A DNA stretch of 42,205 nucleotides from positions 1 to 42,205 of the forward strand of contig NW_021835182.1 of assembly GCF_006345805.1 (NCBI RefSeq), in the 5' to 3' direction. The notes under the pieces were generated by a model. That model was not told the origin of the DNA. It did no database searches and saw only the letters and a list, made by a program, of their open reading frames with translations. Shown here piece after piece: positions 3,361 to 36,582 of this stretch. Position 1 is the stretch's first letter, and the number at the start of each line of letters is the position of its first letter. The position numbers and the translations under genes were made by a program. Source of the DNA: Octopus sinensis (Eukaryota).

Positions 3361-3403
3361 CTTACATACAGACTCATCCATATCCTTTTCTTTATCTTTG
3401 CAG

Positions 3404-3547
3404 GTCCATTAGCCACTGTGCTATTGTAACCGGTTCTCCTTCGGATAGTCGCCATATTAGGAGGTATTATTCTGGCAATCGGTTTCCTCATTACCTCTAA
3501 TGTCAACAAGATAGAATATCTTTACGTGAGTTTCGGACTTATAGGAG
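3404..3547 (+). CDS. SLC16/MCT monocarboxylate transporter, internal exon (TM3-TM4 region), with an in-frame TAA in this assembly
   Basis: Acceptor tctttgcag|GT, donor GGAG|gtaagt, 144 nt, phase 1/1. Reads (G)PLATVL..RIVAILGGIILAIGFLITSNVNKIEYLYVSFGLIG(G), a typical MCT segment. Phase matches the exon at 23067. TAA at 3427-3429. Confidence 0.88.
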
Positions 3548-3605
3548 GTAAGTAGTTTGTTGATTAACTTAGAAACACTCGCTTGCAACACGCGCCACAA
3601 AAACA

Positions 3606-7872: not shown

Positions 7873-8295
7873 TTCTTAATTAGGCAAGAAATCGACATGT
7901 AATCAAAGAAATCATTATTATAACGGGAATAATTATTTAACCATTTAACTAAATACTAAATAAATAGTTAGCTAAATATATAATTTAAGAAACAGTTAAT
8001 TGAATAAAGACTTTCTTAGAAAATCTAAACTATATCCTGTGTAGAGTTTATTTCCATTGGCATAATTTACAAAACTGTTTGAAATATAATATGAACGAAA
8101 GTTATGAGTAAGGTTATTAGTAACACTGTATGCGTGTATGTGTTGCTTGTGCATAGCGTTTGGTGGTGGGAGAGATCTGAATGACTATGGAGGAAGTGAG
8201 ATTGTCGTCATCGCCGAGGTGAATGTCGTCGGCAGCGCTGTCGTTTAATCTTTTATCATCTTTGACACATTAAAGTGTTTCTTAGACTTGATACT

Positions 8296-8646
8296 TATTT
8301 CTTTACTACCCACAAGGGGCTAAACACAGAGAGGACAAACAAGGACAGACACACGGATCAATTCGATTACATCGACCCCAGTGCGTAACTGGTACTTATT
8401 TAATCGACCCCGAAAGGATGAAAGGCAAAGTCGACCTCGGCGGAATTTGAACTCAGAACGTAGCGGCAGACGAAATACCTAGTTCTTTACTACCCACAAG
8501 GTGCTAAACACAGAGGGGACAAACAAGGACAGACAAATGGATTAAGTCGATTACATCGACCCCAGTGCGTAACTGGTACTTAATTTATCGACCCCGAAAA
8601 GATGAAAGGCAAAGTCGACCTCGGCGGAATTTGAACCCAGAACGTA
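8296..8646 (-). mobile_element. Nin/Deu-like-core SINE, headless tandem dimer (184-nt period)
   Basis: Units start at 8296 and 8480 on the + strand; same body and tail as 7294-7477. Confidence 0.9.
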
Positions 8647-8670
8647 GAGAGAGAGATATATATACATATA

Positions 8671-11271: not shown

Positions 11272-11425
11272 AAGGAAGTAACATTTCGAACGCACCACAG
11301 CCATCAAAACAGTAGAAAGATTGGGTATTCCCCACGTGCTGGTAACTTTTTCCTTCTCATAAGGGTAAATACCCAATCTTTCTACTATTTTCACGGCTAT
11401 AGTGCGTTCGGAATATTGCTTTCTT
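11272..11425. repeat. Imperfect inverted repeat (about 58-bp arms)
   Basis: 11272-11329 pairs with 11368-11425, including AGTAGAAAGATTGGGTATT / AATACCCAATCTTTCTACT. Mismatches are almost all transitions. Confidence 0.85.
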
Positions 11426-11439
11426 AGCTTTCTTATCTG

Positions 11440-11479
<40 letters not shown>

Positions 11480-11752
11480 GCGAGAAAGAAGCAACAAGAA
11501 TGGATAAGTTTTTAGTACAATTTCCAAAGTTCATTTAATGAACTTTGGAAATCTGTTTATGTTACTTAATTATCTACATTACTTCATGAGTATAGCCTCA
11601 ACCACCAAGATGTCTAGAGAACTCACATGTATTTTAGCTGATGAGTACGGGACACGTTTATATGCTGCAATTTTTGCAACTTTTAATAAAGCCTGTCCTT
11701 GTATGAAACGATTGTACTAAAAACTTATCCATTCTTGTTGCTTCTTTCTCGC
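11480..11752. repeat. Perfect 42-bp inverted repeat enclosing a 31-nt palindrome and a hammerhead motif
   Basis: 11480-11521 (GCGAGAAAGAAGCAACAAGAATGGATAAGTTTTTAGTACAAT) is the exact reverse complement of 11711-11752. 11521-11551 reads TTTCCAAAGTTCATT-T-AATGAACTTTGGAAA. Confidence 0.95.
11632..11722 (+). ncRNA. Type I hammerhead ribozyme (minimal stem III, Penelope/retrozyme-like)
   Basis: Stem I TTTTAG/CTAAAA; core CTGATGA (11638-11644); stem II GTACGGGACA/TGTCCTTGTAT with a long structured loop; GAAA (11705-11708); stem III AC-GATT-GT; cleavage triplet GTA (11714-11716). Confidence 0.75.
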
Positions 11753-12380
11753 TTATAATCACCCCACATTACTGTATTGTTAAAACCGTATAGTTTTTTG
11801 GTGCATCTAAGTTAGGTACCATTTTCAAGTAAATTCATTTAAATTGACTTGAATCTTTATTGCTTTTTATATATATATATATATATGGAGATAGTAAAAA
11901 AAGTGTCTTGTTTACAGTTTCTGTGATTCCTTTTCCGTCGTATGTAGGGACTTTCGCTTGTAACGGCATGTTTCGGAATCCGGTGTATTTATAATTTTTT
12001 CCGTGAACGGATCTGATTTTTGATTCTTTAAAGTACTTGTGACGTCTTATTTTTCTGGTGCTTAAGTTTGTCGTTATGCCTGGTTGGCTTCCCAGTGGGG
12101 AACGGTCATCAGCCGTTCCAGTTGGTTGATTCTCTTAAAGGGTCAGCTTGTTGTAATTGCCGAAGTTCGGTTTTGAGGTAGAATTTCATTGGACTAGAAT
12201 TAAGTGACGTCAGCAACTGGTGTTTGTATTGTACTCTTGTATGGTGATTTTGAGTTGCGGTTTCGAAACCCGCATGGAAAACTGTTAAATTATGCCTGTT
12301 GTATCTGGTTGCTTTTGTTTTTTATTTTCTTGGAGAAATTAGGTCTTTTTTCTTTTTCTCTGCGGCGTTTTTTCTTCTTT

Positions 12381-12714
12381 CTAAAGGATATTCACCTGTG
12401 GTTTATATTTTTTAATGAGCATGTTTTCCTTATTTAAACGGAATTGGGTTGAAATGTTTCCGATGCATTAATAGAGAGGGAAAATTTGGTATTTCAGATT
12501 TATGTTTGCAAAGCATTGGTCTAGGCTTACGGGAATTTTCCTGGTCGTGGGGTCGCAGATTTGTTGTCTGTGAACCGTTTGTCTGTCCCTCAAGGTCAAA
12601 CTAGTTTTACTTGTGTACTCTCCACCACACCATCCACATTTGAGAACATAGATTAAGTTCTTCGAAGCAGAGGTGAAGTGATTTTAATATGGTAAAATCT
12701 TAACCTGACTTAAA
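12381..12714 (-). mobile_element. Penelope-like element remnant, C-terminal GIY-YIG endonuclease (pseudogenised)
   Basis: Manual translation: SKNLIYVLKCGWCGGEYTSKTSLTLRDRQTVHRQQICDPTTRKIPVSLDQCF..KYQIFPLY*..RLNKENMLIKKYKPQVNIL*. Shows the NLIY..C..C...Y, R.R..H, KE...I and P..N pattern of PLE GIY-YIG domains. Absent from the ORF track. The presumed 3' region continues to (TA)n at about 11887. Confidence 0.85.
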
Positions 12715-13896
12715 TTTGTATGCTGATCCCTCTAAGAGGAAGATGCAAGTCCCGCAGTTAGGGCGGTTGCACTTTTTGACTAGTGGGGTTGTATTTTTGG
12801 CGGGTAATTTGGCGCTAGTCCCTGCACACATTTCTCATCGATCACTACTGACACTACTGAATTTTAACAAGATTATCCACAATTTTCATATTATTGAATG
12901 TTATGAACATTTAAATCATATTTCATATTATTGAAACTTGTAACCATTGAAATTTTTAAACATGTTTTTCTAATTCATTATTTGAAATTTTTACCATTGA
13001 GAAACAAAAAGTATTGTTGAAACTAGTTTTGTATGTATGTGTGTATGTGTGTAAATAAATTTATTCAAAAACAATTACAAGTCTTTCAAACTTAGGTGCA
13101 TTTTCAACAACAAATTTTCTTATATTTTTTCCTGCATGGGAATACATCTCCTCCTCTGTTATATATATAACGATATATTCATTCATAAACTCACATGTGT
13201 CCCTGTAAACGTATCTAATAAAGCTCTATGTAAACATAATCTTCGGCAGCTGTAAACAAATTAAATTTATGTTAATGAATTCTTAATTATTTCTAATTAA
13301 TTATTCTATTTTATTTAACCACATGCAGCAACACGCTTTATTTAGAGTCATCACATATAATAACAAAATATGTAACAAAGTCCACTTATCCAAACGTATC
13401 CACACCATTTTGTTTATATTTTAATATTTTATTTCCCAGCGTCGAAGCTCCTATGTAATTTATTTATTTAACTGTTTATATTTTACTCAGACATGTATGG
13501 ATATTTTGACGTATGTCCCAGAGGAGAGTGGTTACATTTTCCATAATCCAGTCCTAACCCTAATGAAGTGTTATCCGTATTAAATCTACTGTATCTGTTG
13601 TGTAATCGTAAAATGAGAAATATAGTTATTACGTGAGCAATAGGATCTATATAGGTCACTAAGTCACTCACAAAACATTATGTGTGCGATAATACAGTAA
13701 CCTTGTTTTATGTTCTATCATTTTTCGAAATCTTCAAATACATATTGGGGCGAGTCTTCGAGGCCGGAGTGTCATTGAACAGAGAGAAATTCCGTACATC
13801 TGATACATTTTTCTGGTGTAAAATACGTTTAGCAGCTCATGAAGTGGGGGAAAATTAGATACCAACAGTATATAGACAACGCTGAAATGAGACAAT

Positions 13897-22910: not shown

Positions 22911-23066
22911 TATTCTGTCGTTTGTTCATTCTTACATTCTTTCACTTTTTTTATTCTTTCACTCCCCTATTCTGTTATATTCGATTATAACTTCACATAA
23001 ACCAATACCCATTTATTTCAATGTGATTTTACTGACATCTTGTTTTGTTTTTTTTTTCATTTTCAG

Positions 23067-23310
23067 GGGTAGGCAGGTCTTTCGTATATACCCCAAGTGT
23101 AGTGATAGTCACCATGTACTTCAACCACGCCAAGAGTACGGCCTATGGTGTGGCTAGTGCCGGAAGTGGTCTGGGAATGTTAATTGTTCCACCAATATTG
23201 CAGCTTCTCTTCACCAAACATGATTTCTACAGTTCCATGCTGATGCTGATGGCGGTGGCGTTGTTTCTGTGTGTCGGTGGCAGTCTCTATCGACCACCTC
23301 CTTTCACTCC
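23067..23310 (+). CDS. SLC16/MCT monocarboxylate transporter, internal exon (TM4 end to TM6)
   Basis: Polypyrimidine tract plus ttttcag|GG acceptor; donor CC|gtatgt; phase 1/2. GVGRSFVYTPSVVIVTMYFNHAKSTAYGVASAGSGLGMLIVPPILQLL..LCVGGSLYRP matches the MCT YF..(K/R)..A.G.A..G motif and the L.RP end of TM6. Confidence 0.93.
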
Positions 23311-23729: not shown

Positions 23730-24360
23730 CTTACGGTGAAAGTAAATAAAGTTTGCTTTAGAAGCGTTGAGATGTATTGAAAGATACAGAAATAATTTAT
23801 TCTCAAATGCATACTAATACAATAGCATGAACAGAATAAACTATCCATATATTGCAGAAAAATTCATATATTAAGTTCAGGAATAATTCATGAGCGTTTT
23901 TTTTTTTTCAAATTTAATTTCTTTCCTTTTTTGCACTATGCACGTTTCCGGTAAAAAAATTATTTTTTGAAATTCTATAAATTTTGGCCATTTTTTCATA
24001 TATACATACATTATATATATGTATATTATATATATGTATATACATTATATATATACGTATATACATTATATATATATACATTATATATATACACATTATA
24101 TATATACATACATGTGCGTGTACTGGTTTGTATATATTCTCTCCTCTCACTGGCGCTTCCTTTTCTATTTTACTCTCCTCTGTCTCCTTTCGTCTTTCAG
24201 TTACACCTTAGTGGGACACTATATATGTGTCTGTGTGTGCATGTGTGTATGTGTGTGTGGGTGCTTCTGTCCCTTTTTCGTGTGTGAGTGCGTGAATGTA
24301 TATTTGTATATTATATATGAGTATTTCCATATTACGTATGAGTATTCGTATTTTATATAG

Positions 24361-25289
24361 AGAGAAGATATGTTTACGAAGCAGTCCGGAGACAGATCGA
24401 CTCTCAAGAACACAGAGTGAAGATCCAGATAAATACTCACCTGCACCGTACCATGACATCGAACCTGGAACGCCATCTACAATTCTTTCTATGGATACCA
24501 CGGAGATGACCACCACAACGACGGTAACCACGCTTCTGAAGGAAACCCAGCAAGACGTCAACGAAAATCTACAAAACGACCGACAGCTTCTGGACCTTCA
24601 GGAGTCGGTGGAACCAGACTCACGATTTCGTAAAAAACTTTGTCATATTTTATGTTGTTGTTGTAGTAACAGTCACCGGCGACAACACCATCATAAGCAA
24701 ATTCGGTCGAAATCGAAGTCGAAATCGAAATCAAAATCGAAATCGCTTTCGGAAGACGACTGCGAATGCTGTAATTGTCACAAAAACAGGACGATGAAAC
24801 AAAATCGCAAAGTTCTTATAGACTTGACTCTTTTAAAAGATCCTATGTTTCTAATATTTGGCACAAGCCTTTGTCTTTTCACCCTAGGCTCGCAGTCGTC
24901 TGCTGTGTTTGTCCCAGCACTTGGCAAGGAAAAAGGTTTAGATAATATCAAAGCAGCATATTTGATATCGATTCTTGGCGTTACCGATGCAGTAGCAAAG
25001 ATCTGCGCTGGGTTTTTACTTGATCACAAACCTTTGCAAAAATACCGGCGTTTTTTATACAACCTCAACGTTTTTCTAATATCAATTCTCATCATATTGT
25101 GTCCATTTATGGAAAATTTTACCGGATTTGGAATCCTTTGCGCCGTTTATGGTGTATTAAATGGAATTAATGTGTCTCAGAAAGCAATAATGCTTTCAGA
25201 AATTCTTGGAGAGGAAAATATTTCCAGTTCTTTCGGACTTACCATTTGCTTCCAGGGATTAGGTGCTTTAAGTGGACCCCCTCTATCGG
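24361..25289 (+). CDS. SLC16/MCT monocarboxylate transporter, large exon (central loop and TM7-TM11)
   Basis: Acceptor ttttatatag|A completes the phase-2 codon CC+A; donor TCGG|gtaagt (phase 1). Encodes LIDLTLLKDPMFLIF..AAYLISILGVTDAVAKICAGFLLD..SSFGLTICFQGLGALSGPPLSG, the typical MCT C-terminal half. Confidence 0.95.
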
Positions 25290-27386: not shown

Positions 27387-28413
27387 TTCTGGATATCCTG
27401 CAACTCTTCCGTCGGGGCTCCTTGATTAAGTTGGTGAGTGCTGCCATAACCTTTGCTTTCAGTTCATCTTTGGTGTTACAACTGCGCTCCACACATAATA
27501 ATCAAGGAGGTTGCAGCCTGGGGAGTTAGGTGACCAAATGTTAGAGGTGGTGTGGTCACAGAAATTGTCTTACAGCCATAACATAGGGTCTTCCAGCAGT
27601 CACCCTCTTGACCCAGGGCAGCACTACCTCCTCCAGGCACTTGATGTAGGTCTCCGTGTTGAATTTGAGGCCGTGTGGGAAGTTGAATGGAGGCATAGCG
27701 TCGCCATCGCTAGTGATCACTCCAAACACCATGATGTTGACTGGATGTTTGGTTTTTATCAATCAAGGTACATGTTTTGGTGACACGGAAAGCCAGCTGT
27801 TGTTCTTTCTGTGTGTTCACCATCTGATCCTTGCAGAAAATTTTTTAGTCTGAGAAAAACCCAAGCATGTTCGGTAGCATGGTCTTTCCTCTTGTCCTCG
27901 ATGGCTTGGGATAAAAATTGGCCCTTTCTCTTCTTCTATGAGGAATACCGGATGTCTTCATGCACCTCACAAGAAACTCAGACACTTTCATGTTCCTGGC
28001 GATGGACCTGATTGACTTGGAGGGATAGTTGTCAATCATGGTCTGGATCTTACGAACAAATTCAGGAGTTCTTTTCTTATCAGAACGATCAGAGTGAGTT
28101 TTCCAAGCTGCCGTACCTTCGTAATCATCATTAGACTCATCCAACTCTTTCCGAATCCTCTGCACTGTCCTCAGATTGACACTCAAACACTCTGAAATGT
28201 TCGTTTTGGAGCTTCCGGTGCGAATGCCAAGAAGTACAGTATGTCGTTTCCAGATTTCTGGCAGAGTGAATTGCGTTATGATGCTGTTTTTCTTACAAGA
28301 CGATGCCCAACTGACTCTACAATACTATGTACCCGACAAAATCAAAAACAAACAATGCACATGCACGAAATTAAAAAATATATAAAATGGCGACAATTTA
28401 CCTATCGCACCCT
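27387..28413 (-). mobile_element. Tc1/mariner-superfamily transposon (probably DD37D/maT-like), transposase pseudogene
   Basis: Fragments VNLRTVQRIRKEL..PSKSIRSIARNMKVSE, KHPVNIMVFGVITSDGDAMPPF.FPHGLKFNTETYIKCLEEVVLPWV, IWSPNSPGCNLLDYYVW and CNTKDELKAKV. The third catalytic motif ends in D. TIR-like TAGGGTGCGATAGGTAAATTGTCGCC at the right end beside (TA)n. Confidence 0.9.
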
Positions 28414-36007: not shown

Positions 36008-36582
36008 ACGGCAGACTTTCAGATTCCTCAATTAAATTCATTCACAAGTCTTTGGTCGATCCGAGGCTATAGTAGAAGACATTTGCCGAAGTTAACATGC
36101 GGTGAGGCTGAATCCGGAACCATGTGATTGAGAAGCAAGCTTCTTATTTCTTTACTACCCACAAGAGGCTACACACAGAGGGGACAAACAAGGATAGACA
36201 AACGGATTAAGTCGATTATATCGACACCAGTGCATAACTAGTACTTATTTAATCGACCCCGAAAGGATGAAAGGCAAAATCGACCTTGGCGGAATTTGAG
36301 CTCAGAACGTAGCGGCAGACGAAATACCTATTTCTTTATTACCCACAAAGGGCTAAACACAGAGGGGACAAACAACGACAGACAAACGGATTAAGTCGAT
36401 TATATCGACACCAGTGCATAACTGGTACTTATTTAATCGACCCCGAAAGGATGAAAGCAAAGTCGACCTCGGCGGAATTTGAGCTCAGAACGTAGCGGCA
36501 GACGAAATACCGCCAAGCATTTCGCCCGACGTGTTAACGTTTCTACCAGCTCGCCGCTTCTTACTATACAGCTACGCCTGCT
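36008..36582 (-). mobile_element. Family-2 SINE (5' part) interrupted by the insertion below
   Basis: ..GGAACCATGTGATTGAGAAGCAAGCTTCTTA (to 36146) resumes as GCTTCTTACTATACAGCTACGCCTGCTCC (from 36556), matching the uninterrupted copy at 4501-4535. Confidence 0.8.
36145..36557 (-). mobile_element. Nin/Deu-like-core SINE, dimer with head (184-nt period), flanked by GCTTCTTA direct repeats
   Basis: Units at 36145 and 36329; head 36510-36557; TSD-like GCTTCTTA at 36139-36146 and 36556-36563. Confidence 0.9.

Follow-up and report, generated by a model that had tools for sequence, protein, structure and literature searches.

A perfect 42-bp inverted repeat over an intronic hammerhead motif in Octopus sinensis as a probable footprint of Penelope-like insertion

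In the Octopus sinensis contig NW_021835182.1, a hammerhead ribozyme motif lies in the sense direction within an intron, and one arm of a perfect inverted repeat runs across its cleavage site. An earlier note, made from the window alone (the whole stretch of DNA analysed here, 42,205 nt), asked whether the other arm is a built-in off switch for the ribozyme. The question is thus how such a repeat arises and whether masking of the cut site is its function or its consequence. We conclude that the cassette carrying the motif is very probably a short, recent, 5'-truncated Penelope-like element (PLE) insertion in (TA)n, in which the arm was likely made at insertion and blocks the hammerhead as a predicted side effect.

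Direct sequence comparison confirmed the perfect 42-bp repeat: 11480-11521 and 11711-11752 are complementary in inverted orientation at 42 of 42 positions, and the match reaches 47 nt if one mismatch is allowed. The palindrome said to follow directly on the left arm is also present; its reported 31 nt are the core of a 33-nt palindrome (11520-11552, one unpaired centre) that overlaps the arm by 2 nt. The (TA)n tracts described on either side of the cassette exist as well, and a target-site duplication is illegible in them; the right tract does not touch the arm but is separated from it by the 116-nt tail of the element. The cassette (11479-11868) derives from a young PLE with Hydra-clade protein motifs, of which it is a copy truncated at the 5' end. 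Parsed against the parent, it consists of an inverted copy of 11711-11752, then an inverted copy of 11537-11552, then a forward copy from 11534 (Table 1). The inverted repeat is two copies of one transposon segment and not a chance pairing, and because the cassette parses as inverted pieces followed by a forward copy, the palindrome is the centre of an inversion or fold-back, with no separate module. The junction between arm and palindrome falls on a 2-nt AT overlap and occurs a single time in its own genome.

Table 1. Features of the cassette and of the flanking host exons (positions in the window)
Feature	Position	Strand	Remark
Upstream host exon	3403-3549	+	homology; in-frame stop
Left (TA)n target tract	11442-11478	none	
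Junction C	11479	+	untemplated by parent; found at 692/925 such ends
Outer piece, inverted pLTR copy (of 11711-11752)	11480-11521	-	starts at the family's fixed internal site
Inner piece, inverted copy (of 11537-11552)	11520-11535	-	~158 nt of arm missing before it
Palindrome, fold-back centre of the insertion	11520-11552	none	
Forward copy, 5'-truncated, pLTR/3' end of Hydra-type Penelope-like element	11534-11868	+	
Type I hammerhead motif, dimer type	11632-11722	+	predicted cut after 11716
Right arm of 42-bp repeat, ordinary element sequence	11711-11752	+	
Tail of 116 nt on one side, bounded by the two fixed ends	11753-11868	+	
Right (TA)n target tract	11869-11886	none	
Downstream host exon	23066-23302	+	homology

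Other repeats were seen in the window. Just left of the (TA)n tract, 11272-11425 form an imperfect inverted repeat with 58-nt arms (84% complementary) and a 38-nt spacer. An older dispersed repeat at 11890-12900 is 75-83% identical to many loci, and its relatives carry an inverted piece of their own end; this may be a PLE-type family of greater age. At 8291-8647 and again at 36145-36511, one repeat occurs as a 184-bp tandem dimer, which we take to resemble an octopus SINE. An ORF at 27848-28324 on the minus strand weakly matches a helix-turn-helix domain (HTH_23, E 5.5e-4, short of the cut-off) and is perhaps a transposase fragment.

The forward copy belongs to a large family. The 2.72-Gb genome contains 1,698 candidates, and 40 scored copies match 11534-11866 at 97-99%. 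Forward copies all stop at one point on the right, where (TA)n begins, and are truncated to different extents at the 5' end; the one in the cassette has 3 differences from its closest relatives. The tail leads into an ORF in a tandem copy, and locus L079 has the tandem organisation pLTR-ORF-pLTR. YRDD, DKT and VIY...YIG motifs, read by eye in L031 and L079, identify this parent ORF as a reverse transcriptase (RT) with a C-terminal GIY-YIG, which supports the PLE origin that had been suggested for the cassette. Pfam and PDB searches of the parent ORF gave nothing significant, and 93 protein relatives were found at E<=1e-20. Three of these relatives (P0007, P0057 and P0087) are annotated publicly as GATA zinc-finger or kinase-like host proteins.

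Hydra-clade criteria require an RWK motif and a change from DKG to DKT, and the parent has both. L031 contains the CxCX5C linker, CxxC and CxH; L079 is without the third linker Cys. The parent unit is ~4.6 kb, with a frame break in the Asn-rich part of the copies examined. Members of the Hydra clade are generally <3 kb with a single ORF, which the account in PMC8557442 presents as a tendency and not a rule. By its motifs the family appears to match the Hydra type, a placement with which the length disagrees. The Neptune clade was considered as the identity of the element and dropped for Hydra on published clade criteria. A long Asn-rich stretch separates RT and endonuclease in L079 (~1600-2600) and L031, comparable with that described for Adineta Penelopes (PMC3846280). 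We also observed a sister family (L175-L189), ~83-90% alike, with the same two ends and tail, an arm start one base further in and a fully palindromic loop III. At L170, L171, L172, L173 and L015/L016, whole insertions including their TA tracts are tandemly duplicated 2-5 times.

Inverted arms are a general property of the family. Across the genome, the succession of (TA)n, a single base and the arm occurs as an exact match at 925 ends, and 939 copies continue across that point into the 116-nt tail; reversed controls gave 0 of either. On contig C1, the 63 arms all share one start position, 36 nt downstream of the predicted cut. Their lengths run from 34 to >1,500 nt, with a median of at least 373 and 3 of 63 at <=50 nt; nine stops at 373 nt are probably an alignment break against the reference, nine more are limited by sequence extent, and the lengths of both sets are lower bounds. 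With the start fixed 36 nt past the cut, nearly any arm must cover the cut, and no selection is needed; 61 of the 63 do so. An own hammerhead core is present on the other strand in 46 of the 63. Within 8 kb, an exact-match forward partner in the correct orientation accompanies 62 of the first 100 listed arm ends, with spans of 75-6,431 nt (8 of 62 no longer than the cassette); the other 38 have no exact-match partner. The search requires 24 nt of arm and shorter arms are invisible to it; forward copies L011, L017 and L020 showed no arm within the flanking DNA examined.

Within a locus the arms differ by 0.9 per 100 nt, versus 4.7 between loci, in a comparison of 39 loci (61 were given, 40 had both arms in view and 1 was dropped). 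Thirty-four of these show no mismatch across 42 nt, and the subfamily markers are concordant in 32 of 32 cases. The two arms of a locus are, to judge from these sequences, copied from one source at insertion. The earlier note had explained the absence of mismatches by recent origin or homogenisation. Since perfect arms are the norm, homogenisation is unnecessary; recent origin is supported. Arms in two pieces also occur at L070-L072, and the smallest insertions (L088 and L089) have lost the ribozyme core and kept the arm. The fold-back centre of the cassette recurs at one other locus, the independent L012, with an uninterrupted 215-nt arm; the two differ at 11 positions. Descent of the cassette from L012 is unlikely, L012 being the most distant among the 29 top matches over the forward copy.

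Insertions of PLEs are described as carrying an inverted 5'-truncated copy and a one-sided tail of 30-40 bp (PMC8557442), with palindromes at the inverted junction for which self-priming was proposed (PMC3846280). One PLE protein has been shown to cleave and extend both target strands, with reverse transcription starting at two internal sites bounding the tail (PMC11167929). The two fixed ends of the octopus family fit this two-start-site scheme. Four observations form the basis of our insertion model: the two fixed ends 116 nt apart, variable inner junctions, matching arms within a locus and a coding parent. The element endonuclease would cut both strands of (TA)n, and each 3' end would prime reverse transcription on element RNA, at the tail end for one strand and, for the other, at the internal site that lies 36 nt beyond the ribozyme cut. 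Head-to-head joining of these cDNAs via microhomology or fold-back may follow, with self-priming as an alternative. In the cassette they would have met at ~11535, and ~158 nt of left arm would have been skipped or later deleted at the AT microhomology, leaving the 42-nt arm and the palindrome. In pre-mRNA of the host gene, pairing between the arm and the cut site would be expected.

The base between (TA)n and arm is unexpected. It is C at 692 of 925 ends, where the sense-strand T of the parent would give A. We considered and rejected a variant parent carrying G at this position, as the ordinary T is present in all of the first 100 listed of the 939 read-through copies. Only 12 arm ends are joined without an extra base. 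The most frequent tail-end junction, seen in 37 of 67 contexts, likewise puts C first in the cDNA, there opposite a templated G, and the sister family begins its arm at a templated G. A further 318 'TA-CGAG' ends were kept apart from the 925; they are mostly from the sister family with a different template there, as in 17 of 20 regions examined, 4 of which were chosen as tandems.

PLE reverse transcriptases are the closest relatives of telomerase. We propose tentatively, and with rather less than even confidence, a 'dC first' rule: the RT of this Hydra-type element would put C directly after the (TA)n primer at both sites, whether the template is G, as at the tail end and in the sister family, or U, as at the internal site of the present family, by untemplated addition or by telomerase-like CG slip-back, and each insertion would record two start events, 116 nt apart, from two cut strands. 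A search for repeated CG slips gave a single match, an end with a doubled CG, which lends weak support to slip-back. We found no report of an untemplated first base in PLEs, and the junction C may be a new detail; the supplements of PMC8557442 and PMC11167929 could hold the family or junction bases. The family offers some thousand young insertions whose two ends are exact to the base, together with a coding parent and copies without arms as controls, which makes it a natural dataset for PLE RT initiation.

The ribozyme motif has the type I hammerhead core (CUGAnGA, GAAA, NUH) and all three stems. Stem I pairs 11632-37 with 11717-22 (6 bp) and is followed by CUGAUGA (11638-44); stem II pairs 11645-54 with 11694-704 (~10 bp, opening with G-U) and is followed by GAA (11705-07); stem III has 2 bp and a self-complementary GAUU loop, next to the GUA triplet (11714-16). 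As described earlier, the right arm lies over most of the stem III loop (three of its four bases), the GUA and the 3' strand of stem I. An Rfam search of the sequence gave 0 matches at the gathering score, the hammerhead motif included. Among 150 family copies, stem I is intact in 138 and helix II opens with G-U in 145; two common variants (87 and 56 copies) and a sister-family variant keep the self-complementarity of loop III.

Folding predictions, in which energies ignore tertiary contacts, Mg2+ and proteins, put the cost of forcing the hammerhead fold at 19.4 kcal/mol with the arm versus 5.4 in its absence. When the transcript stops shortly after stem I, the costs are 10.8 and 6.7 kcal/mol. 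The expectation that the arm duplex outcompetes the ribozyme fold is therefore upheld as predicted physics, and the ribozyme is likely masked in read-through RNA. The companion claim, that transcripts starting inside the cassette stay active, is doubtful: an armless monomer is predicted to be in the ribozyme fold with P ~1.5e-4 (~1 in 7,000). The loop III self-duplex is predicted at -5.8 kcal/mol. Metazoan PLE hammerheads are described as inactive as monomers, needing dimers and cleaving poorly (PMC4209133), and the hammerhead of PAc cleaves once PAc protein is present (PMC11167929). With or without the arm, a lone ribozyme of the dimer type is probably close to silent.

Other origins of the short perfect arm were weighed against insertion. 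One is that it came from a ribozyme-cleaved template, where reverse transcription ran off at the cut and then jumped; the arm does end 6 nt from the cut, and the arms of L088, L089 and L157 also end near it. Run-off, however, would stop at 11717, and the arm goes 6 templated bases beyond the cut. Junctions number 3 and 8 at two positions at the cut, versus 5 at a control position (two of three adjacent positions were searched), and these ~11 junctions compare with 1,983 read-throughs, or <1 in 100 arm or copy ends. There is no peak of arm or copy ends at the cut and no sign of cleaved RNA among the templates, and we regard this origin as very improbable. Perfect arms, an internal palindrome and TA flanks would equally suit a MITE-like element with the 42-bp arms as terminal inverted repeats, but the element runs on past its right arm, arm length spans ~50-fold in the family and the cassette sequence corresponds to the 3' end of an element that encodes an RT, which leaves this reading with practically no chance. 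A MITE with fixed terminal inverted repeats common to many copies is ruled out by the single occurrence of the arm/palindrome junction. A non-LTR retrozyme, built of non-coding tandem hammerhead units, was also considered; the cassette is a single partial unit of a coding element.

The off switch remains to be set against insertion alone. In its strongest form, arms arise mechanically and host selection spares sense-intronic hammerheads mainly if the arm masks the cut. The cassette is sense-intronic, and by prediction the arm makes the ribozyme fold 14 kcal/mol more costly, with a penalty of 4 kcal/mol even when the transcript is just past stem I. Retrozymes are described as depleted from introns in Xenopus (10.64898/2026.07.22.740005), and armless copies exist as a control class. 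Coverage of the cut, however, is near-automatic given the fixed arm start, the armless monomer is already predicted to fold so rarely, and no trace of cleaved RNA is seen among the templates. The copy is too young to show conservation, its host exon carries a stop in the assembly, and the 42-nt arm with its junction was found once in the genome. A built-in, selected switch is thus unsupported, and we consider selection of this kind unlikely. Masking is most likely a by-product of element insertion, and as a switch the layout matters little because it is the known footprint of Penelope-like insertion. A comparison of genic orientations had been proposed as the test; since 46 of 63 arms bring their own hammerhead core, most insertions, whichever way they lie, place an antisense arm ahead of a sense hammerhead, and that test is blunted. 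A literature search for an intronic masking effect found nothing on point among the papers listed.

The sense-intronic position itself holds by homology. Colinear plus-strand exons of an MFS transporter, the two in Table 1 and a third at 24359-25255, flank the cassette, which lies in sense within a 19.5-kb intron of this single-copy gene. The transporter is presumably SLC16-like. Further exons of the gene are on C21 and C10933. The stop in the upstream exon lies between apparent compensating +1/-1 indels relative to P0005 and reflects an assembly error or a pseudogene. A search for an empty-site allele found no second copy of the locus in its own genome, and no contig spanning the insertion was obtained from four DNA-type runs. 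With gene annotation, the family would allow a direct test of hammerhead tolerance in sense introns.

Compared with known systems, the insertion resembles those of EN+ PLEs (PMC8557442, PMC3846280) in its inverted 5' copy, the palindrome at the inversion junction, the one-sided tail, the (TA)n target, the pLTR hammerhead and the tandem read-through into an ORF. Unlike the 30-40 nt described there, the tail is 116 nt; the arm of the cassette is internally deleted, and most family arms begin with an untemplated C. The ribozyme shares a 6-bp helix I, a 2-bp helix III, a palindromic loop 3 and a long helix II with the dimer-type type I hammerheads of metazoan PLEs and retrozymes as described in PMC4209133. 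It differs in opening helix II with G-U where those have a conserved G-C, and in being a single copy with no tandem partner in the intron.

PAc, a Poseidon element of the green anole studied in vitro (PMC11167929), is from another clade and has start sites that lie near each other within the ORF; untemplated first bases are unmentioned in the main text. Like the octopus family it has two fixed RT start sites bounding the tail, an AT-rich target and no trace of RNA ending at the hammerhead cut. Set beside the Hydra clade as described in PMC8557442, the parent is unlike in its size (~4.6 kb and not <3 kb), in the Asn-rich insert that separates RT from endonuclease and in a 3' region of 1.5 kb; it is like in its RWK, DKT and CxCx5C linker, its C-terminal GIY-YIG, the CxxC and CxH that replace CCHH, the hammerhead and insertion into (TA)n.
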